From NCBI GenBank assembly GCA_963923845.1, contig CAWULR010000002.1, positions 1 to 36,814 on the forward strand: DNA of 36,814 bases. The letters are read 5' to 3'. Source of the stretch: an uncultured bacterium (GTDB lineage: Bacteria; Chloroflexota; Limnocylindria; Limnocylindrales; Limnocylindraceae). The position numbers and the translations under genes were made by a program. The notes below the pieces were generated by a model. It worked only from the letters and a program-made list of their open reading frames with translations. It was not told where the DNA came from and made no database searches. This document shows, in pieces, positions 2,139 to 12,302 of the stretch. How positions within the stretch are numbered: the stretch's first letter is position 1; every line of letters starts with the position of its first letter.

Positions 2139-2618
2139 CTACGACCCTTCGTAGGCGGCGCGGAGCTCCGCGACGACGAGCTTCTCCATCTTCATCATCG
2201 CGGCCATCGCGCGCGCCGCACCCTCTGGATTCGGCCCGCCGATGTATTTGTTCATCTCACGAGGATTCACCTGCCATGAGAGGCCGAAGCGATCCTTCAA
2301 CCAACCGCAGCGGCCGTGTTCGCCGCCGCCTGCGACGAGGCCCTCCCAGTAGTGGTCGACCTCGGCCTGATCGGCGCAGTCGATCTGGAACGAGACCGCT
2401 TCGCTGAACTTGAAATCCGGACCGCCGTTGAGTCCAAGGTACGGAACACCCGAGAGGTTGAAGCGCACGGCCAGCACGCTCCCCGCCTCTCCTGCGTGAT
2501 AGTCGCCGGGGGCGCGCACGACTTCGTCGATCGAACTGTTCGGAAAGAGCGACACGTAGAGCTGCGCCGCCTCTTCGGCTCTGCCGTCGAACCAGAGGCA
2601 CGCGTTGGTCGTCGTCAT
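2139..2618 (-). CDS. VOC-superfamily protein, PhnB-like / 3-demethylubiquinone-9 3-methyltransferase-domain family
   Basis: 159-aa ORF. N-terminal ACLWFDGRAEEAAQLYVSLFPNS and C-terminal CGWLKDRFGLSWQV are typical of this family. Confidence 0.75.
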   Translation of the reverse strand: MTTTNACLWFDGRAEEAAQLYVSLFPNSSIDEVVRAPGDYHAGEAGSVLAVRFNLSGVPYLGLNGGPDFKFSEAVSFQIDCADQAEVDHYWEGLVAGGGEHGRCGWLKDRFGLSWQVNPREMNKYIGGPNPEGAARAMAAMMKMEKLVVAELRAAYEGS

Positions 2619-2667
2619 CGCGCGATCGTACCGCAGCGCGCAGCGCGTCGTGCGCTACGCTGGCGCG

Positions 2668-3180
2668 ATGCTGCTCGTCGTGGATGCCCAGGTGAATCAG
2701 TTCGAACCGCCGATGGCGGTCCACGACGGACCAGCGATCCTTCGTCGTCTCAAAGAGCTCGTTTCGCGCGCGCGTGCGGCCGGCGTGCCGGTGGCGTTCG
2801 TCCAGAACGACGGCGGCGAGATCGATCCCGACTTCCCCGGAACGCCGGGCTGGGCGCTGCACCCAGACCTGCTCCCCACCGACGGCGAGAGGGTCTATCG
2901 CAAGACGACCACGGACTCATTCCACGAGACCGGACTGCTCGAGGATCTGCGCGCCGCGGGCATCACCGAGCTCGTCATCGCCGGAATGCAGTCGAACCAC
3001 TGCATCGACGCCACGACTCGCCGCGCTGCGAGCGAAGGCTTCGCCGTGACGCTGGTCTCGGATGCGCACAGCACCTTCTCGTTCACCGACGAGCCGGCCG
3101 CCTCGATCATCGCGCGGCAGAACGCCGCGCTCGGCGCCCTCGTGTCGCTCGCCACCACGGCCGAGGTGACCTTCCGATGA
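2668..3180 (+). CDS. isochorismatase-family cysteine hydrolase
   Basis: MLLVVDAQVNQF start typical of the family, plus later ELVIAGMQSNHCIDATTRRA containing the catalytic-Cys context. I chose ATG 2668 over the track start 2605, which would overlap the divergent gene. Confidence 0.8.
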   Translation: MLLVVDAQVNQFEPPMAVHDGPAILRRLKELVSRARAAGVPVAFVQNDGGEIDPDFPGTPGWALHPDLLPTDGERVYRKTTTDSFHETGLLEDLRAAGITELVIAGMQSNHCIDATTRRAASEGFAVTLVSDAHSTFSFTDEPAASIIARQNAALGALVSLATTAEVTFR

Positions 3181-3686
3181 GCGAACGGAACGAGACGCTC
3201 GACCAGCTCATGCGCCACATGGCCTGGGCGAACGCAGACCTTTTCGGGCGCCTCGCTGCGCTCCCAGATGCGGCGCTCGGCCACACAGCGCCCGGCAGCG
3301 AGTGGAGCGTCGGCGCGATTGCCCACCACCTGGTGACGGCGGCGGAGAACTACGCGCAGCGGCTGCACGGCGAGCCTCGCGCACCAGAACGCGAGGTGCC
3401 GACGACGAGCGCACAAGTGCGCGACCTGCAGGCCATCCTGGCCACCGCCGATGCGCGGCTTCGCAGCGCGGCGCAGCTCCCCGGCGACGAGGTGCTGCAC
3501 TGGATCTCCTTCAACGGCGAGCCGATGAGCTTCCCGCGCTGGGTACTCGTCAATCAATCGGTCCATCACGCCACGGAACACCGTGCGCAGATCGCCGGCG
3601 CCCTCGCGGCGAACGGGATCACGAGCGTAGATCTGGATGCGATCGACGTTTGGTCCCTCAGCGACGAGGATTCTTCCTCGCGCTAG
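3177..3686 (+). CDS. DinB-family (four-helix bundle, metal-dependent) protein
   Basis: C-terminal 169 aa of ORF 2316..3686. ATG 3177 overlaps the upstream TGA (ATGA). Shows DinB-like spacing of His residues (AIAHHLV ... NQSVHHATEHRAQI). Confidence 0.7.
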   Translation: MSERNETLDQLMRHMAWANADLFGRLAALPDAALGHTAPGSEWSVGAIAHHLVTAAENYAQRLHGEPRAPEREVPTTSAQVRDLQAILATADARLRSAAQLPGDEVLHWISFNGEPMSFPRWVLVNQSVHHATEHRAQIAGALAANGITSVDLDAIDVWSLSDEDSSSR

Positions 3687-4600
3687 GCCGTCGCCGCGCG
3701 CAGCGCGGGCAAGAGCGCGCCGATCTCGCGCACCGAGCGCTCGTTGATCGGATTCGCGATCACGATGATCTCGTCGGCGCCCGCCGCGGCGAACGTTGCC
3801 AGCTGTCGCACGATCTCCGCCGCATCACCCTGGACGGGCGGCAGCTCCGTGCCGAGCGGACGCTCCGTCGATGAGGGATCTGTACGCACGAGCACGCAAG
3901 CACTGCGACGCAACGTTCGCGGATCGCGTCCGACGGCGAGCGCCGCTGCGCTGATCTCGGCGTTGAGCGCGGCGAGGCGCGCGGGGCTGTTGCCGTAGCT
4001 GTCGTACCAGGTGTTCCATGAGGTCACGTCTCGCAGCGTGATCGAGAGCATGCGCGGACCGTTGCTGCCGATCATGAGCGGGATCGGACTCAGCGGTGTC
4101 GGCAGCAGCACCGCATCGTCGACCGAGAAGTACTCGCCCGTGTACGTGACGCGCTCGCCGCGCACGAGCGGCGCGATGATCGCGAAGGCCTCTTCGAATC
4201 GGCTGATGCGCTTCTCATAGGGGAGGCCGAACGCGTCGTAGTCCGGCCTGTTCCACCCCGCGCCGAGGCCGAGCATCAGTCGCCCGCCGGAGATCTCGTG
4301 GACGGCGGCCGCCTGCTTGGCGAGCACGGCGGGTGGATGGAACGAGGCACAGGCGACGAGCGGTCCGATCTCGACGCGACTCGTCACCGCCGCCACCGCG
4401 GCGAGCGTTGCCCAACACTCGTGCGGGCCGCGTTCCGGCCGGCCGTCGTTGCGGTAGAGGAGATGGTCGCCGACCCAGAGCGAGTCGAAACCGGACTCTT
4501 CCGCAGCCGTTGCGATCGCACGCAGCTCCGGCCAGCGCACGACGCGTTCGACTTCGGGGAGCTGGATGCCGATGCGCAGCGGCTCGCCGGTCGTGCCCAT
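3683..4600 (-). CDS. LLM-class (luciferase-like) F420/flavin-dependent oxidoreductase
   Basis: MGTTGEPLRIGIQLPE...FDSLWVGDHLL...GGRLMLGLGAGWNRPDYDAFG are typical LLM motifs. Start ATG 4600 was chosen inside the merged 616-aa ORF. It lies 8 bp downstream of the ALDH stop. Confidence 0.8.
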   Translation of the reverse strand: MGTTGEPLRIGIQLPEVERVVRWPELRAIATAAEESGFDSLWVGDHLLYRNDGRPERGPHECWATLAAVAAVTSRVEIGPLVACASFHPPAVLAKQAAAVHEISGGRLMLGLGAGWNRPDYDAFGLPYEKRISRFEEAFAIIAPLVRGERVTYTGEYFSVDDAVLLPTPLSPIPLMIGSNGPRMLSITLRDVTSWNTWYDSYGNSPARLAALNAEISAAALAVGRDPRTLRRSACVLVRTDPSSTERPLGTELPPVQGDAAEIVRQLATFAAAGADEIIVIANPINERSVREIGALLPALRAATA

Positions 4601-4608
4601 CGAACTGC

Positions 4609-6108
4609 CTAGGGACGGAACGCGTCGTCGTCCGGGTAGGGGAACCACTCCGGGTCCGGCTCGGCGTCGGGGGCGATCATCACCATCTTCGAGCGACGGA
4701 ACTGGTCGAGCCCTTCGGTGCCGAGCTCGCGGCCGGAACCGGTGAACTTGCGTCCGCCGAACGGGATCGCATCGTTGTCGTTGAGCGGCGTGTTGACCCA
4801 GACGATCCCCGTCTCGATCTCGCGCACCGCGCGCGCCGACTCTGCAAGGTCGTTCGTGTAGATGTTTGCGCCGAGCCCGAGGTCGGAGTCGTTCGCACAG
4901 CGGATCGCCTCGTCGAGGCTCGCCACGCGCGCGACCGGTGCGAGCGGACCGAAGCACTCGCCGTGCATGATCTCCATCGAGTGATCTACGCGCAGCACCG
5001 TCGGTTCGTAGAACCAGCCTGTCGATCGGTGCGGCGGTCGCCTGCCGCCGGTCTCGATTCGCGCCCCCTGCTCGACGGCACGCGCCACGATGCGCTCGAC
5101 GCGGAGCAGCTCGCGCTCGGATGCCATCGGTCCGATGTCGATCGGCTCGAGTCCGCTGCCGACGCGCAGCGCCGCCGCCGCTGCCGCGAGACGCGCAACG
5201 AACGGCTCGTAGACCGACTCGTGAACATAGAAGCGCTCCGCCGACGTGCACACCTGCCCGCAGTTGAGGAACGCGGCGAACGCCGCACCGCGCGCCGCGA
5301 TCTCGATGTCGGCGGACGGCATCACGATGAAGGCGTCGTTGCCGGAGGCCTCGATGAGCGTCGGCTTGAAGCGTTCGGCCGCAGACGCAGCGACGTGCTG
5401 CGCGGCACGGACGCTGCCGGTGAAGGCGACGGCGTGGGTCTGCGGATGCGAGACGAGTGCCTGTCCGGTGGCGGCGCCGCCGGTGAGGACCTGCACGAGC
5501 CCGCGCGGCAGGTGGTCGAAGGCTTCCATCCACATCAGCAACGTGACGGGCGTCAGCTCGGATGGCTTGATGATGACCGCGTTCCCTGCGGCGAGCGCCG
5601 CCGCCGCCTGCCAGCCCGCGAGCAGCATCGGGAAGTTGTACGGGACGATGGAGACAACGACGCCGAGCGGCTCCTTGAGCACCATCTGCAGCTGGCCCGC
5701 GATCGCCGGTCCCGCGACGCGACCCGCCTCGCTGCGCGCGATCTCCGCGTAGTAGCGGAACGACGACGCCGCGGCTCCGCCCTCCCAGTTCGATTCACGG
5801 AACGGCTTCCCCATCTCGCGGGTGAGGCACTCGCCGGTACGCGGCGAACGCTCCACCATCTTCGACGCAACCTCGTGCAGTGCGTTTGCGCGGTCGAGCG
5901 CGCTCATCTGCCACCAGATGCGCTGCGCTTCGTTCGCCGCGGCAACGGCGCGGTCCACCTCTTCGCCCGTGGCGTCGGCGTAGCTCGAGGCGCGTTCCGT
6001 GGTCGCCGGGTCGATCACGTCATGACGATCACCCACGCTCGGCACCCACTCGCCGGCCAGGTAGATCGTGTTCGAGAGCTCCGCCATGCGACGCTGGACT
6101 TCGGTCAC
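4609..6108 (-). CDS. NAD(P)-dependent aldehyde dehydrogenase family protein
   Basis: 499 aa. ALDH hallmarks: VPYNFP, KPSELTP, FTGS, catalytic Cys in FLNCGQVCTSAERFYV, PFGG. GTG start at 6108 is preceded by AAGGAGGTG. Confidence 0.9.
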   Translation of the reverse strand: MTEVQRRMAELSNTIYLAGEWVPSVGDRHDVIDPATTERASSYADATGEEVDRAVAAANEAQRIWWQMSALDRANALHEVASKMVERSPRTGECLTREMGKPFRESNWEGGAAASSFRYYAEIARSEAGRVAGPAIAGQLQMVLKEPLGVVVSIVPYNFPMLLAGWQAAAALAAGNAVIIKPSELTPVTLLMWMEAFDHLPRGLVQVLTGGAATGQALVSHPQTHAVAFTGSVRAAQHVAASAAERFKPTLIEASGNDAFIVMPSADIEIAARGAAFAAFLNCGQVCTSAERFYVHESVYEPFVARLAAAAAALRVGSGLEPIDIGPMASERELLRVERIVARAVEQGARIETGGRRPPHRSTGWFYEPTVLRVDHSMEIMHGECFGPLAPVARVASLDEAIRCANDSDLGLGANIYTNDLAESARAVREIETGIVWVNTPLNDNDAIPFGGRKFTGSGRELGTEGLDQFRRSKMVMIAPDAEPDPEWFPYPDDDAFRP

Positions 6109-6231
6109 CGCGCCACCTCCTTCATCACGACCTTACGGCATCGCCCCCGCGCTTCCAACACCGGATGCGACCAGCGACACGAGCGCGATGCGACCACCCG
6201 AGTGGTCGAGCGCCCGCAGACAACGCCGCTT

Positions 6232-6291
6232 CGCTACAATCCCCCTCCGGCGCCGATGTAGCTCAGTGGTAGAGCAGCTGTTTCGTAAACA
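6232..6291 (+). repeat. left copy of a 60-bp perfect direct repeat (tRNA-Thr upstream flank + 5' half)
   Basis: cgctacaatccccctccggcgccgatgtagctcagtggtagagcagctgtttcgtaaaca is identical at 6232..6291 and 9367..9426. It extends to 65 bp with one mismatch (6227.. and 9362..). Confidence 0.95.
6252..6290 (+). pseudogene. truncated tRNA-Thr(CGU): acceptor 5' strand, D-arm and anticodon loop only
   Basis: Identical to the first 39 nt of the intact tRNA at 9387. The sequence downstream (atcggcaagcgcgatattcc...) has no T-arm (no GTTCRANNC) and no acceptor 3' strand. Confidence 0.85.
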
Positions 6292-6429
6292 TCGGCAAGC
6301 GCGATATTCCGCCGTTTTGAGCACAGAAACAGCAGGTCTGGGACCTATTTCTGCCCAACGTACCCAACATGTAGCCCGACGAGTCGAGAGCCGACACTCT
6401 GGTAGCAGCGTGCGTCGCTCGTTGAGTCA

Positions 6430-7953
6430 CTACGGGGAGATTTCCAGCGTGCAAGAGCCGCGCATCTCGCTGAACTGATCTTTCCCGACCACGAGCGTTG
6501 CTTCCCACGTACCTGCGACAGGGAATACAGTTCCGCCTTGCCACGCGCCCGATGAAGCCTCCATTTCGGCTGCAAGTCGCTCGCTCTTGGGCCGAAGCGA
6601 GGTTTCAAGTCGCACGCGCTCGGCTTGCGCGACACCGGAGATGAGGACGCGGTTCGCACCGATCGTTCCAGGACTCAACGTGATACTGACGGTCGCACCT
6701 TCGATCGTGGTGACGCAAGCCCGCGAATGGCCCGCATGACCCGCGTGCGGCGACCCGAGCGTCAGACCGGCAGAGAGCGCCGCGATAACCACTACCGTGG
6801 CGGTGTCAATCGCGAAGAGTCGGGCGGCCGCCTTACGGCTCGCAGTTTTGGCGCGCAACTGACGCCGCATCCACGCGCCACCGAAGAGGGCAACGACCGC
6901 GAGCAGCAACTTCGCGCACAGGAGCAGCACGTACGTAGAGAGGCCGCCCGCAAGTCCATCGGTGAGAATCCACCCGAGCACGATGCCACCTCCGAATACG
7001 AACGAAATCGCTGCGGCCGAGTTTCGCGAGAACCGCAGGATCGTCTCGAGCATCGAGAGGTCATCCACGGATCGATCTGAATACGCAACAACGAGAGCCG
7101 GGGCAGCGCCGATCCAGAGCGCGGCCGAAACGAGATGAGCAACTAAGAGCGCAGAGGTTGTTGCGGCCGCACCTGGGTGGCCGCCGACGGCGAGTGTCGC
7201 AAGTGCCGCGACCGCAAGTCCAACGGCGACGCGAGGCATTCGCATCGAGGCGACTGAAGCTCCGCTCAGAAGCAGGACCCGCGCGATGCCGCCAAGCGCG
7301 TTCCCCGTAGTCAGCCATGCCGCTCCGCCAATCAGTACCTGCATCACTACCCAGAGGAGCGACGCGAACGCAGCGAGGGTGACCGCGCCGATGGCAAACC
7401 GTCGCACCTCGCGGCCCTTGGCACGCAATGCAGCGCAGGCATAGAGTGCGCCGACTGCGACGAGGAGCGAGAGATCGGCGGCGAATCGTGCAGCCCAGAG
7501 CAATGGGGCCTCAGAGCTGCGGAGGGCGAGCACCGCCTTTCTGGACGCCTCATCCGCAGATCCGACGCCAAACGACGCCGCCGACTCCACCACATGTCCG
7601 TCGGATGAGATCACCCGCCATGTGGCGAGATACCACCCCGACGGGAGCGGGTCGAGCGTCTGCGTCAACGTGGTGCCGGCGACAGATTCAGCAGTGGAGT
7701 CGACTTGGCGACCAGCTGCGTTGTAGATCTTGACGCTATCGCTCTCCACGCCCACCGCCTCGTTGAAGGTGATAGAAAATGCGGAGGGCGGAGCCGTGAC
7801 CACCGTTCCGTCACCCGGGCTCGTGTCGATTACCTCTGCGTGTGCGAGAACGGGTGCGGCGAACGAGAGCGACCAACATGCAGCTGCGAGCAGTGCGGTG
7901 AGGAGGCCGAAAGGCCTCCTCACCGTCTGTCGATCTTGACGGTCGCCCGTCAT
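6430..7953 (-). CDS. ycnJ: CopC-CopD fusion copper-handling membrane protein (YcnJ-like) with an extra C-terminal beta-rich domain
   Basis: Signal peptide ending VLA followed by HAEVIDTSPGDG (CopC with a mature N-terminal His), then WRVISSDGH, then about 8 TM helices (CopD), then a soluble C-terminal domain. Confidence 0.85.
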   Translation of the reverse strand: MTGDRQDRQTVRRPFGLLTALLAAACWSLSFAAPVLAHAEVIDTSPGDGTVVTAPPSAFSITFNEAVGVESDSVKIYNAAGRQVDSTAESVAGTTLTQTLDPLPSGWYLATWRVISSDGHVVESAASFGVGSADEASRKAVLALRSSEAPLLWAARFAADLSLLVAVGALYACAALRAKGREVRRFAIGAVTLAAFASLLWVVMQVLIGGAAWLTTGNALGGIARVLLLSGASVASMRMPRVAVGLAVAALATLAVGGHPGAAATTSALLVAHLVSAALWIGAAPALVVAYSDRSVDDLSMLETILRFSRNSAAAISFVFGGGIVLGWILTDGLAGGLSTYVLLLCAKLLLAVVALFGGAWMRRQLRAKTASRKAAARLFAIDTATVVVIAALSAGLTLGSPHAGHAGHSRACVTTIEGATVSITLSPGTIGANRVLISGVAQAERVRLETSLRPKSERLAAEMEASSGAWQGGTVFPVAGTWEATLVVGKDQFSEMRGSCTLEISP

Positions 7954-7975
7954 GGATTTCGAGTGTGCAGCCGGC

Positions 7976-8665
7976 TCAGCGCTTCGCGGCGTTGCTTCGT
8001 CGCGAGGAGACGCTTACACCGAGGGCGACGAGTGCGGCCACGATAGCGACGTAGGCCAGCGGATCCGTCGAAGTCGACGAACCGTTTGACGCACCGCCGC
8101 TGCCACTCGTGTCACCACCCATGCTTCCATCGCCAGCGGCGGCGACGACAGTGATCGTCGGAGCAGGGTGCTCAAGATCGTCCTCCGTCTGGCCGGCCCC
8201 TGGGATCTCGATCCAGGCGATGGTGTCCGCTCCGCACTTCTGCGTCACCGGCACCGTGTACTCACCTGGCTCCATCGTGAAGATCGCGCTGATGCCGAAA
8301 TCAAGGTATTGATCTGCTGGAAGCGAGCCGCCGCTCCAGGTCACCACGCCGACTCGATCGGTGTAGGTGGTTCCCCAGAGGGTGTAGGGCGCCGATGTGA
8401 CTCGTTCAGTCGCAACCTTCCATCCCGCGAGCGCCTCTGGCTTGGCGTTCACGACCCCATCGGGGAGCTGTACAGAGACCGTATCGGTCGGTGCGCCATT
8501 GCACCCGTGCGGGATCCTGACATGGATCACGGCACCATCACCGCCCTGCGGGATGTCTGAGCCGTCGGGAACCGTCGCATGTGCCGCAACTGGCATCGCC
8601 GAGACGAGCAACAGCGCGAGCACGGCAAGAGCGCTCGCCGCACGGCGAGCAATCGTCTGATTCAT
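7976..8665 (-). CDS. ycnI: YcnI-family (DUF1775) copper-binding protein with C-terminal membrane anchor
   Basis: Signal peptide PVAA followed by HATVPDG (mature N-terminal His), IPHGCNG, a Gly/Ser-rich linker, then TM helix AYVAIVAALVALGVSV. AAGGAGTG lies upstream of the ATG. Confidence 0.85.
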   Translation of the reverse strand: MNQTIARRAASALAVLALLLVSAMPVAAHATVPDGSDIPQGGDGAVIHVRIPHGCNGAPTDTVSVQLPDGVVNAKPEALAGWKVATERVTSAPYTLWGTTYTDRVGVVTWSGGSLPADQYLDFGISAIFTMEPGEYTVPVTQKCGADTIAWIEIPGAGQTEDDLEHPAPTITVVAAAGDGSMGGDTSGSGGASNGSSTSTDPLAYVAIVAALVALGVSVSSRRSNAAKR

Positions 8666-8720
8666 CTTTCACTCCTTACTTCACGATAAGCGCCGATCAC
8701 ATGGATCGACGCGCAACAGG

Positions 8721-9293
8721 TCAAGCGAGAAGCGGTGGCCCTCGTACTGGCTGCAGCAACAGTGCACGTACGCTACGTCGCGGGTCGCTCGCAGGGAGCA
8801 GTCGCTCGACTCTCTGACACACGGCCAAACGCGCCGCTCGAAGGAGATATCGGGCTGCGCTGGCAATGCCTCGCGAGAGGAGGACGACGCCGAGCGCGGT
8901 TGCCACTTGCATGAGCAATCCGACGAAGAAGAGAAGCGCTCCTTGTCGCGAAGCGATCTCGGCGAACAGGTCGGAAGGTAGCGCTCCGTGGGCAAGCCGT
9001 TCGACGATCTCGATCGCCACATAAGCAACCAACTGAACAACGATGAGTGCCGCCGCTCGATGACGGAACGATGACGAATCGTCACGCGTGTTGATGGTCT
9101 GCACCAGCGAGATCGCCAACGCAAGCCCGCCGAAGATCGGGAGCAGGGCCAGCCACGTGTGCCCTGTATCTGCGAGTGCATGCGCGAGGACCCGCGGGTC
9201 GCGGAAGACGAACGCGTAGGCAAGCTGGTGTCCCACGAGGAGGCCAACGATGGACGAAGAGATGATTCCTGGGAGGCTTCTGAGGTGGCGCAT
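8721..9293 (-). CDS. hypothetical 4-TM membrane protein, first gene of the copper cassette
   Basis: 190-aa ORF with four hydrophobic segments and several His residues (GHQLAY, AHALADTGH, LAHG). The overlapping 224-aa ORF 8681..9355 is Ser/Arg-rich and looks spurious. I recognise no family. Confidence 0.5.
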   Translation of the reverse strand: MRHLRSLPGIISSSIVGLLVGHQLAYAFVFRDPRVLAHALADTGHTWLALLPIFGGLALAISLVQTINTRDDSSSFRHRAAALIVVQLVAYVAIEIVERLAHGALPSDLFAEIASRQGALLFFVGLLMQVATALGVVLLSRGIASAARYLLRAARLAVCQRVERLLPASDPRRSVRALLLQPVRGPPLLA

Positions 9294-9302
9294 CTATGTG
9301 CG

Positions 9303-9308
9303 ATTATA
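9303..9308 (-). promoter_or_regulatory. consensus -10 box TATAAT, 9 nt upstream of the ATG at 9293 (near-leaderless)
   Basis: The minus strand reads gcacTATAATcgcacatagATG. No good -35 element was seen. Confidence 0.4.
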
Positions 9309-9366
9309 GTGCTCTTATCGCTCAGAGGGTTTGGGCTCGCAGGCAAAGCGCGCACACTTGACGCTC

Positions 9367-9426
9367 CGCTACAATCCCCCTCCGGCGCCGATGTAGCTCA
9401 GTGGTAGAGCAGCTGTTTCGTAAACA
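9367..9426 (+). repeat. right copy of the 60-bp perfect direct repeat
   Basis: Identical to 6232..6291. It overlaps the 5' 40 nt of the intact tRNA-Thr. Confidence 0.95.
9370..9375 (+). promoter_or_regulatory. -10-like TACAAT, 11 nt upstream of the tRNA-Thr 5' end (duplicated at 6235..6240)
   Basis: gcTACAATccccctccggc followed by the tRNA. The tRNA-Glu at 29129 has gcTACCCT at the same 11-nt spacing. Confidence 0.35.
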
Positions 9427-9461
9427 GCAGGCCGTGAGTTCAATCCTCACCATCGGCTCCA
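9387..9461 (+). tRNA. tRNA-Thr (anticodon CGT), CCA encoded
   Basis: Hand-folded cloverleaf. Acceptor GCCGATG/CATCGGC, D-stem GCTC/GAGC, anticodon stem GCTGT/ACAGC with loop TTCGTAA, T-stem GTGAG/CTCAC with loop TTCAATC, discriminator T, then CCA. Confidence 0.9.
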
Positions 9462-9540
9462 CCTCCCGTCGGCCTGGGTACGCACCCTCCGCTACCATCT
9501 GAGCACGGCACCTTCGTTGCCGAGAGCCTGAGGAGGAACG

Positions 9541-10488
9541 GTGGGCGAGAACGAGCTCTTCACGCCGCTCGGCCTCGGGTTCGGGATCTTCCTCATCGGC
9601 GCCCTGGCGATCGACTTCGGCATCCTCAGGCGGAAGGGGACCCACATCGTCCCCGTGAAGGAGGCGGCGGCCTGGACCCTGGTCTGGATCGTGCTCGCCA
9701 TCCTGTTCGGCATCGGCATGCAGATCTACTGGCAGGACGGCACGAAGACCACCGAGTACTTCGTCGGCTACCTGGTGGAGAAGTCGCTCTCGGTGGACAA
9801 TATCTTCGTCTTCACGATCATCTTCGCTTCGCTGAAGACTCCGAAGAAGCTTCAGCAGCTGGCGCTGATGTGGGGCATCATGATCGCGCTGATCCTGCGC
9901 GGCATCATGATCTTGATCGGCGCGGCGCTCATCGAACAGTTCGAGTGGATCATCTGGGTGTTCGGCGCCTTCCTCCTCTGGACCGGCGTCGCGATGTTGC
10001 GCTCGGGCGGGCACGCAGGCGAGGGTGAGCCGTCGGCGATCCGATTCGCAAAGCGCTTCATCCGCGTCACCGATGACTACGACGAGGAGCGCTTCCGCGT
10101 GTCGGTGGGCGGCGTGAAGAAGTTCACGCCGATCTTCCTCACGATCGTGGTGATCGGCATCATCGACCTGATCTTCGCCGTGGACAGCATCCCTGCCATC
10201 TTCGGCATCACGCTCGACCCGTTCATCGTCTTCACATCCAACGCCTTCGCGATCCTCGGCCTCAGGAACATGTACTTCCTGCTTGCGAACGCGCGAGACC
10301 AGTTCCACTACCTCGGCACCGGACTCGCCTTCGTGCTGATGTGGATCGGCATCAAGATGATCCTGCCCGCGATCAACCACGACTGGAAGATTCCGCCGCT
10401 GATCAGCCTCGTTGTCGTGATCGGCATCCTCACCGTGTCGATCGTCGCCTCCGTCGTGCACTCACGACGACACGCGAACCGATCGTAG
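9541..10488 (+). CDS. terC: TerC-family integral membrane protein (Alx/YkoY-like, putative Mn2+ efflux)
   Basis: 315 aa. EKSLSVDNIFVF and AVDSIPAIFGIT are the twin TerC signature segments. GTG start follows GAGGAGGA. Confidence 0.9.
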   Translation: MGENELFTPLGLGFGIFLIGALAIDFGILRRKGTHIVPVKEAAAWTLVWIVLAILFGIGMQIYWQDGTKTTEYFVGYLVEKSLSVDNIFVFTIIFASLKTPKKLQQLALMWGIMIALILRGIMILIGAALIEQFEWIIWVFGAFLLWTGVAMLRSGGHAGEGEPSAIRFAKRFIRVTDDYDEERFRVSVGGVKKFTPIFLTIVVIGIIDLIFAVDSIPAIFGITLDPFIVFTSNAFAILGLRNMYFLLANARDQFHYLGTGLAFVLMWIGIKMILPAINHDWKIPPLISLVVVIGILTVSIVASVVHSRRHANRS

Positions 10489-10526
10489 GGTTCCGCCACG
10501 CCGCTTCGGCTGACGGACGGCGGACG

Positions 10527-11504
10527 ATGATTCGGATGCGCACGACGCTACTGGCACTCACCGTTGCGGCCACGATGGTCGGCACAACCTGGGCTTCGCC
10601 ACGGGCGGTCAGCGCGGCTGATGAGGCGATCCCCGAACCTCCGAGCTGCGCGTCGCTCTTGGCGCGCAAGGTGATCCTCACTCCGACCGGAGCCTCGATC
10701 GAGGGCGAGGAGATCACCAAGGAGCACCGCCGCAAACAGTGGGCGACCTCGGTCCTCGATCCGATGTATCGGCTGCCGGCCAGCTACGTACCGACGACGC
10801 TCACCTGGATCACGGACCAGGCGGTCGCCTCGCCGACCACGGGCGTCTTCCTGCTTCGCCGAGAGGCGGCGACCGCGCTGCGCAGCATGTTCGTCGCCGC
10901 GCGCGAAGCTGATGTTCGACTGCGCATCATCTCCGCGTATCGCTCGTACAAGACCCAGATCACGACGTTCTCCTACTGGGTGGAGCAGTCGGGCCTGCAG
11001 CTCGCGCGAAGGTTCAGCGCGGTCCCCGGTCACTCCGAACATCAGCTCGGGACGGCGGTGGACCTTGGGACCGTGGGCGCCGGCGCGCCATGGGGGAGCG
11101 CCCGATTCGCCACCTCGCCGACGGCGGTGTGGCTTGGAGAGAACGCCTACCGATTCGGATTCATCCGTTCGTATCCGTCTGGCGCAAAGCGCGTCGCGCT
11201 GAGCTGCTACGGAAGCGAACCGTGGCACTGGCGCTACGTGGGACTCGACCTCGCCTATGAGATCGCCTGCAGCGAGCAGGTGCCGCGCATCTTCCTCTGG
11301 AACCGGCAGTGGGGCGGTGAGCGCGCGATCGGCGAGAACTGCGGCGAGCTCCAGCCGCCGCTCGGCTACGCGGTGGAGGGCGACGCGGACGGCGACCGCG
11401 TGGCAGACGAGGTCGACAACTGTCCAGACCTGCTCAACCCCGACCAGCTCGACAGCGATGCGAACGGAGTCGGCGACGCCTGCGAGCCGACGCCCGCGCC
11501 GTAG
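10527..11504 (+). CDS. secreted M15B (VanY-type) D-alanyl-D-alanine carboxypeptidase with a C-terminal thrombospondin type-3 (Ca-binding) repeat
   Basis: Signal peptide MIRMRTTLLALTVAATMVG. SAYRSYKTQ, GHSEHQLGTAVD and EPWHWRY are the VanY metal/catalytic motifs. The C-terminus DADGDRVADEVDNCPDLLNPDQLDSDANGVGDAC matches the TSP3 consensus. Confidence 0.8.
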   Translation: MIRMRTTLLALTVAATMVGTTWASPRAVSAADEAIPEPPSCASLLARKVILTPTGASIEGEEITKEHRRKQWATSVLDPMYRLPASYVPTTLTWITDQAVASPTTGVFLLRREAATALRSMFVAAREADVRLRIISAYRSYKTQITTFSYWVEQSGLQLARRFSAVPGHSEHQLGTAVDLGTVGAGAPWGSARFATSPTAVWLGENAYRFGFIRSYPSGAKRVALSCYGSEPWHWRYVGLDLAYEIACSEQVPRIFLWNRQWGGERAIGENCGELQPPLGYAVEGDADGDRVADEVDNCPDLLNPDQLDSDANGVGDACEPTPAP

Positions 11505-11513
11505 GAGTCCGAC

Positions 11514-12302
11514 TCAGCGACGGGTGCGGCGGTAGTACGCAACCGCGCCGATCGTCACGGCGCCAAAGAGCAGCTCCGCGCCGACGATCCCGAGCGCTGG
11601 GAGGAAGAGCACGGCGCTGAGATTCGCCACGGTGTGCAGCGCGATCGGCAGGACCAGTCGAGCGGCAAGGTCCCCGCGACCGCCGGCGCCCTGCACCGCG
11701 CGGAGGACCATCAGCGTCAAGACGATGTGCAGCACGGTGGCGAAGAGGCGCTCCACCACGGCGAGGGCGGCAACGGCGAAGCTCTGTCCCGAAAGGAAGG
11801 CGACGGCGGTGTCGAGCGACTCCCTCGAGCCGGGCGGCAGGTTGGAGTAGATGCTCCCGTCGGCGGCACCGCCGAGCAGGGCGATCGCCGCAAGCGACGG
11901 AAGGAGCGTGAAGATGAGCGCTTCGATCCCGGCGTGTCCGAACCCGAAGGCGATCCCCTCCGATTCGTTGCGCAGCCTCCGTGCCGCGGTGGAGAGGATC
12001 AGCGCCCGACTCGCCTCTTCGAAGAGGCCCGCCGTGAACGAGGCGACGACGACCGAGAGGGTCCACGATGCGCTCCCGACCTCCGGTGCGGCGCTGCCGA
12101 TCAACAGTGCGCTCACCAGCGTCAGCACCGGGAGTCGCGCCGCTTGGCTCAAGACGAAGGCAACGCCGCCCCACGCCCACGGCGCGAAGCTGCCGCTGAG
12201 CCTGCGCGCCACCACGACGCCGCCGACGAGGAGCGTGATGAGCGCGCCTGCGATGAAGGTGTACGCGCCCTGGGCGGCGGCGAGTTCCGCCGCGTCGATC
12301 AC
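11514..12302 (-). CDS. YhfC-family / CPBP-like intramembrane metalloprotease
   Basis: 262 aa, polytopic. FEEASR, FGHAGIE and ALHTVAN are arranged as in Glu/His intramembrane proteases. GTG start overlaps the upstream stop (GTGA). Confidence 0.55.
   Translation of the reverse strand: MIDAAELAAAQGAYTFIAGALITLLVGGVVVARRLSGSFAPWAWGGVAFVLSQAARLPVLTLVSALLIGSAAPEVGSASWTLSVVVASFTAGLFEEASRALILSTAARRLRNESEGIAFGFGHAGIEALIFTLLPSLAAIALLGGAADGSIYSNLPPGSRESLDTAVAFLSGQSFAVAALAVVERLFATVLHIVLTLMVLRAVQGAGGRGDLAARLVLPIALHTVANLSAVLFLPALGIVGAELLFGAVTIGAVAYYRRTRR

Follow-up and report, generated by a model that had tools for sequence, protein, structure and literature searches.

A recombinase-less islet carrying a putative copper cassette, probably inserted in trans at the 5′ part of a tRNA-Thr gene in Candidatus Limnocylindrus

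How does a small gene cassette that encodes no recombinase come to lie between two copies of the promoter and 5′ half of a tRNA gene? The question is raised by a locus in contig CAWULR010000002.1 (assembly GCA_963923845.1), a stretch of 36,814 nucleotides that was analysed as a whole and is referred to here as the window. Three minus-strand genes with the domains of a copper cassette lie there between an aldehyde dehydrogenase (ALDH) gene and an intact tRNA-Thr(CGU) gene, which is followed by terC. Relatives of TerC in species-representative genomes all belong to Candidatus Limnocylindrus or to metagenome-assembled genomes of Chloroflexota, and the host is Candidatus Limnocylindrus. The Limnocylindria are an abundant group of freshwater bacterioplankton with reduced genomes, and to our knowledge almost nothing is known about mobile elements in this streamlined planktonic phylum. 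We consider it probable that the cassette is a non-autonomous cargo islet which was inserted at the anticodon-loop region of tRNA-Thr(CGU) by a recombinase acting in trans. The observations that carry this reading are the anatomy of the repeat, the foreign composition of the cassette, empty sites in relatives, independent recurrence, low diversity and a second islet at the same breakpoint.

Within positions 4000-12000 a repeat finder returned one long direct repeat (6227-6291 and 9362-9426), which is 65 nt long with one mismatch, T at 6231 against C at 9366, the inner 60 nt being identical. An earlier reading of this DNA from its letters alone (the sequence-only reading) had described the same repeat and had noticed that the open reading frames (ORFs) 5880..6272 and 9159..9407 share the terminal LQSPSGADVAQW; both descriptions were confirmed. 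Each copy consists of 25 nt of upstream sequence including TACAAT, followed by nt 1-40 of the tRNA. Upstream of the tRNA, all relatives share the promoter segment from -25 to -1 and no conserved sequence beyond it, which accounts for the left limit of the repeat. Across the 36.8-kb window the 40-mer of the tRNA 5′ half is present in exactly two places, and 100 shuffles gave no occurrence. As had been claimed, the right copy belongs to an intact plus-strand tRNA-Thr(cgt), which ARAGORN places at 9387-9461 and which scores 73.1 bits in Rfam. The left copy had been called a dead 5′ half that stops exactly after the anticodon loop. The first part holds (6252-6297 reaches only 27.4 bits against a gathering score of 29) and the second needs a small correction, as the copy runs slightly past the loop and takes in the first 3 nt of the anticodon stem's 3′ strand.

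The left repeat (attL core, plus strand) retains the host's original promoter (TACAAT at 6235-6240) and tRNA nt 1-40 (6252-6291) as an orphaned, dead 5′ fragment, and it is continuous with the ALDH flank in L003, a relative with an empty site. The right repeat (attR core, plus strand) has islet DNA as its upstream neighbour; its islet-borne promoter and nt 1-40 now drive the working, hybrid tRNA gene and form its 5′ part. Each end of the locus therefore carries a directly repeated part of a tRNA gene, the intact gene standing at one of the two, and the breakpoint is at a canonical sublocation within the tRNA, the identity ending at nt 40. The locus does not have the usual orientation, in which an island restores the 3′ end: here the islet gives the promoter plus nt 1-40, and the displaced fragment is the 5′ part. 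Two further details of the left junction were noted. The first islet bases, TCGGC, recreate at the breakpoint (ACA|TCGGC) the CATCGGC of the tRNA 3′ acceptor strand, and the dead fragment can close an 8-bp acceptor-like stem, GCCGATGT/ACATCGGC, from 6252-6259 and 6289-6296, which the second islet described below lacks.

The empty site in L003 is clear from the alignment, which covers window positions 4622-6291 and then resumes at 9360-11354, with positions 9820-9886 of L003 matching both repeat copies. Its order, ALDH-tRNA-Thr-terC, is the ancestral order that the sequence-only reading had deduced. The islet is also missing from L001 and L004, in which other genes lie upstream of the tRNA. The occupied site recurs as well. 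The exact YcnI protein of the cassette is encoded on 22 contigs, ten of which, from different samples, were fetched; all ten have the same gene order, at 98.8-99.6% identity to the window. Eight of them run across both junctions, L009 and L016 each lacking part of the left junction, and junctions that are present in independent assemblies are not an assembly artefact. The left copy is polymorphic among these contigs, with G>T at 6266 (D-loop) and T>A at 6281 (anticodon stem), and the right copy and the rest of the tRNA (9362-9461) show no differences in nine of the ten, the remaining contig (L014) having one promoter substitution at 9385. The left copy is dead and evolves neutrally.

Diversity across the locus was computed as nucleotide diversity (pi) on six locus-spanning sequences. 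Over all sites and at third codon positions, respectively, it is 0.014 and 0.034 in the luciferase-like gene and 0.012 and 0.030 in the ALDH gene, with 0.009 over all sites in the right flank; within the islet it falls to 0.0029 and 0.002 in copCD, to 0.0013 and 0.004 in ycnI, and to 0 and 0 in the gene for a protein with four transmembrane segments (4-TM). Of the third positions, 56 of 808 segregate in the flanks and 5 of 929 in the islet (Fisher p = 4e-14). At these positions the islet is approximately 10-fold less diverse than the flanks, and a 200-nt sliding profile drops at ~6400 and rises at ~9400. Purifying selection was rejected as the source of this deficit, which is strongest at third codon positions. 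Such a deficit at synonymous positions means that the islet either reached strains that had already diverged or swept through them, and the islet is younger than its surroundings. Of the 12 sites that segregate in copCD in the population alignment, only 3 are third codon positions, compared with 35 of 43 in the ALDH gene; CopC-CopD may have been under relaxed or diversifying selection after acquisition.

The same breakpoint in the same tRNA-Thr(CGU) gene is occupied in another Limnocylindrus lineage by an unrelated islet. Contig L039 has a partial copy of the promoter and tRNA nt 1-40 at 588-647, then a 1.9-kb islet with a single minus-strand gene for a 580-amino-acid (aa) WD40/RCC1-repeat protein, and then a second promoter copy with the intact tRNA at 2581-2655. 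The G+C content at third codon positions (GC3) is 0.54 in the islet gene and 0.69-0.79 in host genes. L040, which encodes an identical TerC protein, matches L039 over 1-648 (97.5%) and 2559-6362 (99.7%) through one shared 63-nt stretch (L040:1332-1394), and is an exact empty site for this islet. The tRNA identity in L039 ends at nt 37-44. The two copies of the repeat differ at position -2, where the host base is in the left copy, and at tRNA nt 38, where it is in the right one. A crossover between -2 and nt 38, within the anticodon loop or ahead of it, would fit this pattern, the right bound depending on the nt-38 base being islet-derived and not the product of a later mutation or a 3-nt deletion.

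The copper islet itself is also found in a more divergent background. A variant that is 91-93% identical in nucleotide sequence is known from two contigs, L023 and L031, whose overlap is 98% identical. L023 contains ycnI and copCD, and it shares with the window the 139-nt spacer and the breakpoint ACA|TCGGCAAGCG; the 27 nt of its outer left flank do not align with the window. L031 contains the 4-TM gene (88% aa identity), the same non-coding right arm, the tRNA and terC, and the genes beyond terC are not syntenic. Its TerC protein is 56% identical to that of the window and belongs to the type that a distinct clade of Limnocylindrus has as its ortholog, a clade in which the downstream synteny is the same. 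The compositional difference persists in this lineage, with GC3 of ~0.85 in L031 host genes, 0.67 in the L031 4-TM gene and 0.71-0.73 in the L023 islet genes.

As the sequence-only reading had listed them, the three minus-strand genes between the repeats encode a 4-TM protein, a YcnI-type protein and a CopC-CopD fusion. The first gene of the cassette (8721-9293, GC3 0.68) encodes the 190-aa 4-TM protein, which has no match in Pfam, PHROGs or NCBIfam; homologues of 47-88% identity precede DUF1775-CopCD wherever the context was examined (for the 88%, 63% and ~47% homologues). It is followed by the 229-aa DUF1775 protein (7976-8665, Pfam 6.8e-29, GC3 0.71) and by the 507-aa CopC-CopD protein (6430-7953, Pfam CopC 4.9e-19, GC3 0.70). 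The CopD domain is weak in the window protein and clear in its homologues, which carry both CopC and CopD. Codons in the islet had been judged by eye to end in A or T far more often than in the flanks, and the GC3 values agree: 0.68-0.71 in the islet against 0.85-0.93 in the flanks, where the minus-strand ALDH gene (4609..6108, syntenic with L003) has 0.88, the plus-strand terC (9541..10488) has 0.93 and the other genes have 0.85-0.91. terC is GC-poor overall because of AT-rich second codon positions only, so the atypical segment is the islet itself, bounded by the repeat. Relatives are lower in GC (60-62%, GC3 0.70-0.84), and the composition of the islet would fit a lower-GC donor within the Limnocylindria. 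The ycnKJI genes of Bacillus subtilis form a copper-acquisition operon in which YcnJ is a CopC-CopD protein and YcnI a DUF1775 protein. The islet likewise places a DUF1775 gene adjacent to a CopC-CopD fusion, so that by domain content and by analogy with Bacillus its cargo would handle or import copper. It differs in having no YcnK-type regulator and in being led by the additional conserved 4-TM protein of no known family.

The non-coding arms of the islet contain candidate signals. In the right arm (P arm, 9294..9361), which has its own -10 box, a perfect TATAAT lies on the minus strand at 9303-9308, 9 nt before the ATG of the 4-TM gene, and the sequence suggests that the cassette mRNA may be leaderless and transcribed divergently from the tRNA promoter. 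The L031 variant has TACAAT at the same position. Comparison of this arm with L031 shows that the 33 nt adjoining the repeat are 100% conserved between the two lineages. The left arm (P′ arm, 6292..6429) contains blocks conserved between both copper-islet lineages, a terminator-like hairpin of copCD found on the minus strand by a terminator scan (6333-6347 plus a T-rich tail) and the octamer GAAACAGC, which is the complement of tRNA nt 27-34. The arms of the copper and L039 islets are unrelated apart from this octamer, which stands exactly 34 nt inside the breakpoint in both (window 6326-6333, L039:682-689); any shared 8-mer at that place arose in 29 of 5000 shuffles. It is a candidate recombinase site, a candidate insulator or terminator for the orphan promoter, or a coincidence. 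The octamer overlaps the tail of the copCD hairpin in the window, and in L039 it is part of a longer complement of 11 nt, after which comes TTTTTT. A 12-mer at 6327-6338, AAACAGCAGGTC, unique in the window, was considered as a second tRNA fragment, that is, the scar of a nested element. This was rejected because the local alignment is weak (89 of 2000 shuffles), and the 12-mer also coincides with the T-rich tail and stem of the minus-strand copCD hairpin.

The sequence-only reading had seen no integrase, excisionase or transposase, and domain searches bear this out. The three islet ORFs were scanned with Pfam, PHROGs and NCBIfam and all GC3-supported ORFs of the window with Pfam, and no recombinase, transposase or relaxase domain was found in the copper islet, the L039 islet or the window ORFs; the integrase gene that a tRNA island would normally contain is absent. 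No hidden recombinase was found near tRNA-Thr in relatives when the 256-aa and 205-aa proteins of L001, the 365-aa protein of L004 and the 342-aa protein of L032 were searched with the same three databases. No helper in the form of an integrative and conjugative element (ICE) or integrative and mobilisable element (IME) was seen at any locus examined, these being the window and short metagenome contigs. IMG/VR was scanned with CopCD relatives and, for the attachment region, with the P arm, the 40-nt tRNA half and a 24-nt core; all that came back were unrelated tRNA clusters of phages and distant matches of CopD type, which lends no support to a phage or satellite carrier.

An islet without a recombinase would have been inserted by an integrase encoded elsewhere, and on that basis the following model can be drawn. 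Positions 6292-9361 plus one repeat copy would constitute the islet, which would have entered by site-specific recombination in a Candidatus Limnocylindrus population, bringing with it a tRNA promoter (-25 to -1) and nt 1-40 in a mirror image of the usual orientation. In a Campbell-type crossover the products would be attL = B-O-P′ and attR = P-O-B′, with the block of identity upstream of the anticodon loop instead of downstream. The working tRNA gene would then be a hybrid whose promoter and 5′ part come from the islet and whose 3′ part comes from the host, and the host promoter and 5′ part would be stranded at the far end as the dead fragment. The cargo would travel as a self-contained operon with its own -10 box and terminator-like hairpin. 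A tyrosine-type integrase, encoded elsewhere in the genome or by a helper element or phage, would insert the islet and presumably excise it. The cargo-only form appears to be mobile because the same unit is found in divergent backgrounds and two units are found at one site, and a mobile form of this kind would require a recombinase in trans.

Several points weigh against this model. The integrase at its centre is hypothetical, none having been found in the islets or the window. The junction of a circular form (P arm, repeat, P′ arm; attP) was not found in JGI metagenome contigs, which is a weak negative because assemblies seldom capture a rare circle, and the searches of IMG/VR turned up neither the P arm nor the tRNA half. 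In L039 the breakpoint can be read in two ways, at nt 37-40 or, with a 3-nt deletion, at nt 44. The evidence on the left flank of the 91-93% lineage consists of 27 nt in L023, and the TerC of L031 (4736-5659) matches its homologues only to about residue 168, so that this contig is rearranged or possibly chimeric, with a rearrangement or mis-join inside terC. No empty-site contig of the window's own species was met, and none was looked for. Finally, in several contigs the shared tract of low diversity ends 40-350 nt outside the islet and not at the repeat, and a gene-specific sweep by homologous recombination could be the source of the low diversity.

That last observation leads to an alternative that we regard as unlikely, in which the islet is a decayed, immobile remnant that spread within the species by homologous recombination of its flanks and was swept up for copper handling. 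The variable, recombination-like end points of the low-diversity tract are what it would predict, there is no integrase nearby, every recovered contig of the window's species has the islet, and degenerate elements and stray partial tRNAs are common in tRNA-adjacent islands (10.1101/2020.12.28.424599; PMC5704250). Against it stands the reduced 3.07-kb unit with identical arms beside a terC of 56% identity, a flank too divergent for homologous recombination to act on. The L039 islet, unrelated and likewise without a recombinase, shows clean presence and absence at the same breakpoint, and two independent decays to a cargo-only state at one site are less parsimonious than a cargo-only form that is mobile. 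The sequence-only reading had offered a decayed islet or a satellite-type islet mobilised in trans; the latter is now favoured over decay in place by the divergent terC background, the approximately 10-fold lower synonymous diversity and the L039/L040 pair, with the recombinase itself inferred.

Homology alone might also be invoked, with RecA circularising the segment between the 65-nt repeats and the circle re-entering by a single crossover at the conserved promoter and 5′ half of tRNA-Thr. This would need no recombinase, none being found, and recipients would offer 60-100 nt of perfect homology, since the promoter and tRNA 5′ half are nearly identical in all Limnocylindrus relatives examined. 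We nevertheless think it improbable. Two unrelated islets end their tRNA homology at nt 37-44, in the anticodon stem-loop that is the classic crossover location of tyrosine integrases; pure homology predicts no such thing, and a fixed crossover site is favoured for that reason. Homology also leaves unexplained how each islet first acquired the promoter and 5′ half, and 65 nt is near the lower limit for efficient RecA recombination in well-studied bacteria. As for an artefact of assembly or binning, or a one-off local illegitimate rearrangement without mobility, many contigs do break at or near the tRNA and assemblers struggle at the locus, but the junctions are spanned in contigs from different samples and assemblers, the left copy has polymorphisms of its own, and the same architecture occurs with other cargo in L039. 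The independent assemblies effectively refute this explanation, which the sequence-only reading had named as one that would undo its claim; its other two refuting conditions, GC3 like that of the flanks and the lack of any empty site among relatives, are likewise contradicted by the data.

The model of insertion in trans can be set in the wider context of the locus. The gene directly upstream of tRNA-Thr(CGU) differs in almost every Limnocylindrus lineage examined (L001, L003, L004, L040/L043, L041 and the window); the variants include ALDH, an af470-like monooxygenase with HTH_3 and unknown ORFs, a nucleoside hydrolase with the 365-aa unknown protein, TetR with a 91-aa protein, and rhodanese. 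The downstream side is conserved as terC-VanY-YhfC-SdpI-PntB. The upstream side of tRNA-Thr is a hypervariable spot. Many contigs of several Limnocylindrus lineages (L044, L045, L046, L049, L020 and L021) end at or in the tRNA-Thr gene or its promoter, as would be expected if populations were heterogeneous there. TerC look-ups for further islets (P0027, P0061) returned only empty sites or contigs broken at the tRNA. A 52-nt sequence with the palindromes TTGTATTAGTACAA and GTGTTGTAGGAATACAACAC is shared almost exactly between L001:9747-9800, just upstream of the tRNA-Thr promoter and adjoining the HTH_3 gene and unknown ORFs, and L022:2439-2490 (minus strand), just after the tRNA-Glu-type repeat described below; it may mark where another mobile element ends, or serve as an operator.

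More distant versions of the three-gene copper cassette also lie near tRNA genes. A 60% identical version is found in L032 and L033. The cassette of L032 is bracketed by a 120-nt direct repeat whose copies (2241-2360 and 5351-5470) are 93% identical and spaced 3110 nt apart. The repeat terminates with GGTATGCGCTACCAA, the sequence with which a tRNA-Glu(CTC) gene 1.3 kb upstream (L032:882-958) closes at its 3′ end. L022 encodes the same CopCD protein as the L032/L033 version, with different DNA directly after the repeat (L022:2370-2497). Judged by these sequences, L032 and L022 look like recombinase-less islets arrayed at tRNA-Glu, with the 3′ orientation that is usual for tRNA islands, and there too the copper cassette forms a bounded unit that lacks a recombinase. 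An Rfam search with the 120-nt repeat gave no family match; we take it for an att or arm repeat whose terminus is the 3′ end of tRNA-Glu, and not for a riboswitch. Versions of 47-48% identity adjoin tRNA-Ser and tRNA-Arg genes and have no flanking repeats.

Taken further, tRNA-Thr(CGU), and possibly tRNA-Glu(CTC) in a related lineage, could be the docking site of a system of recombinase-free cassettes, each bringing a promoter and tRNA 5′ half for its attachment, which a recombinase encoded elsewhere would insert, exchange and spread among strains and species. We put this forward tentatively, and with similar reserve suggest that such a system might function as an integron-like or satellite-like platform for gene shuffling on a tRNA gene. 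If cargo-only islets in the 5′ half of tRNA genes are a regular route of gene gain in the Limnocylindria, the hypervariable spot upstream of tRNA-Thr would be explained. The locus would also illustrate, in a concrete instance, how a trait for acquiring a metal can move through a natural population more quickly than the genome around it, and would point to a putative trans-acting recombinase whose attB is known to the nucleotide. Islets of this type are invisible to finders that require an integrase, such as Islander, and that mostly assume the 3′ orientation. The islet replaces the promoter of an essential, probably single-copy tRNA gene, and is in that sense a natural promoter-replacement experiment.

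Among the systems most like this one are the 'reversed' tRNA-targeting islands of tyrosine integrases. Integration into the 5′-distal part of a tRNA gene is, according to PMC6563490, which cites Zhao & Williams 2002, documented but uncommon, with Mesorhizobium loti and archaeal examples; the duplicated core of promoter and 5′ half that the sequence-only reading had thought unusual is rare, as it said, and has this precedent. Islander accepts a 5′ fragment upstream of the tDNA and requires an integrase gene (PMC4383910). The copper islet shares with these islands the part-tRNA repeat, the displaced fragment, the breakpoint in the anticodon stem-loop, the foreign composition and the empty site in relatives, but it has no integrase in or adjoining it, is tiny (3.1 kb, with a sister of 1.9 kb) and consists of cargo only. 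In this last respect it resembles the cis-mobilisable elements (CIMEs) described in Firmicutes, att-flanked derivatives of ICEs and IMEs that lack integration and transfer genes (PMC5704250). The islet too has kept attL and attR, lacks a recombination and transfer module, and would be expected to move only with the integrase of a helper. CIMEs, however, are decay products that lie in tandem with, or derive from, a recognisable ICE or IME at the 3′ end of the target gene, whereas the islets described here are 5′-oriented, no parent or helper was recognised for them, and two unrelated cargo-only units share one site, which suggests that such elements normally exist as cargo only and did not decay to that state.

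The individual ingredients of the locus are familiar from these and other systems, while for their combination, tiny cargo-only units in a 5′ orientation with promoter replacement, different cargo recurring at one nucleotide-level site, and a host in the Chloroflexota plankton, we found no description; among the top-ranked full-text matches on genomic islands and tRNA genes in this group there was no Limnocylindrus paper. The tycheposon islands of Prochlorococcus, which hold partial tRNAs and degenerate elements (10.1101/2020.12.28.424599), are a close parallel: the host is again streamlined and planktonic, nutrient or metal cargo lies by tRNA genes, full and partial tRNA copies flank the cargo, arrays and remnants occur, and the tRNA-adjacent region is hypervariable between strains. 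Tycheposons are defined by their own tyrosine recombinase and often have replication genes, whereas the copper islet has no recombinase domain; homology to tycheposon genes was not seen either, although no search aimed at it was made. The likeness to integron cassettes is a functional analogy only. In both cases small recombinase-less cargo would use one docking site, different cassettes occupy it and the enzyme would be encoded elsewhere. The islets differ in having no attC-type site, IntI or attI platform, and in bringing their own promoter and rebuilding the tRNA gene, with one islet per locus and no array seen at tRNA-Thr.

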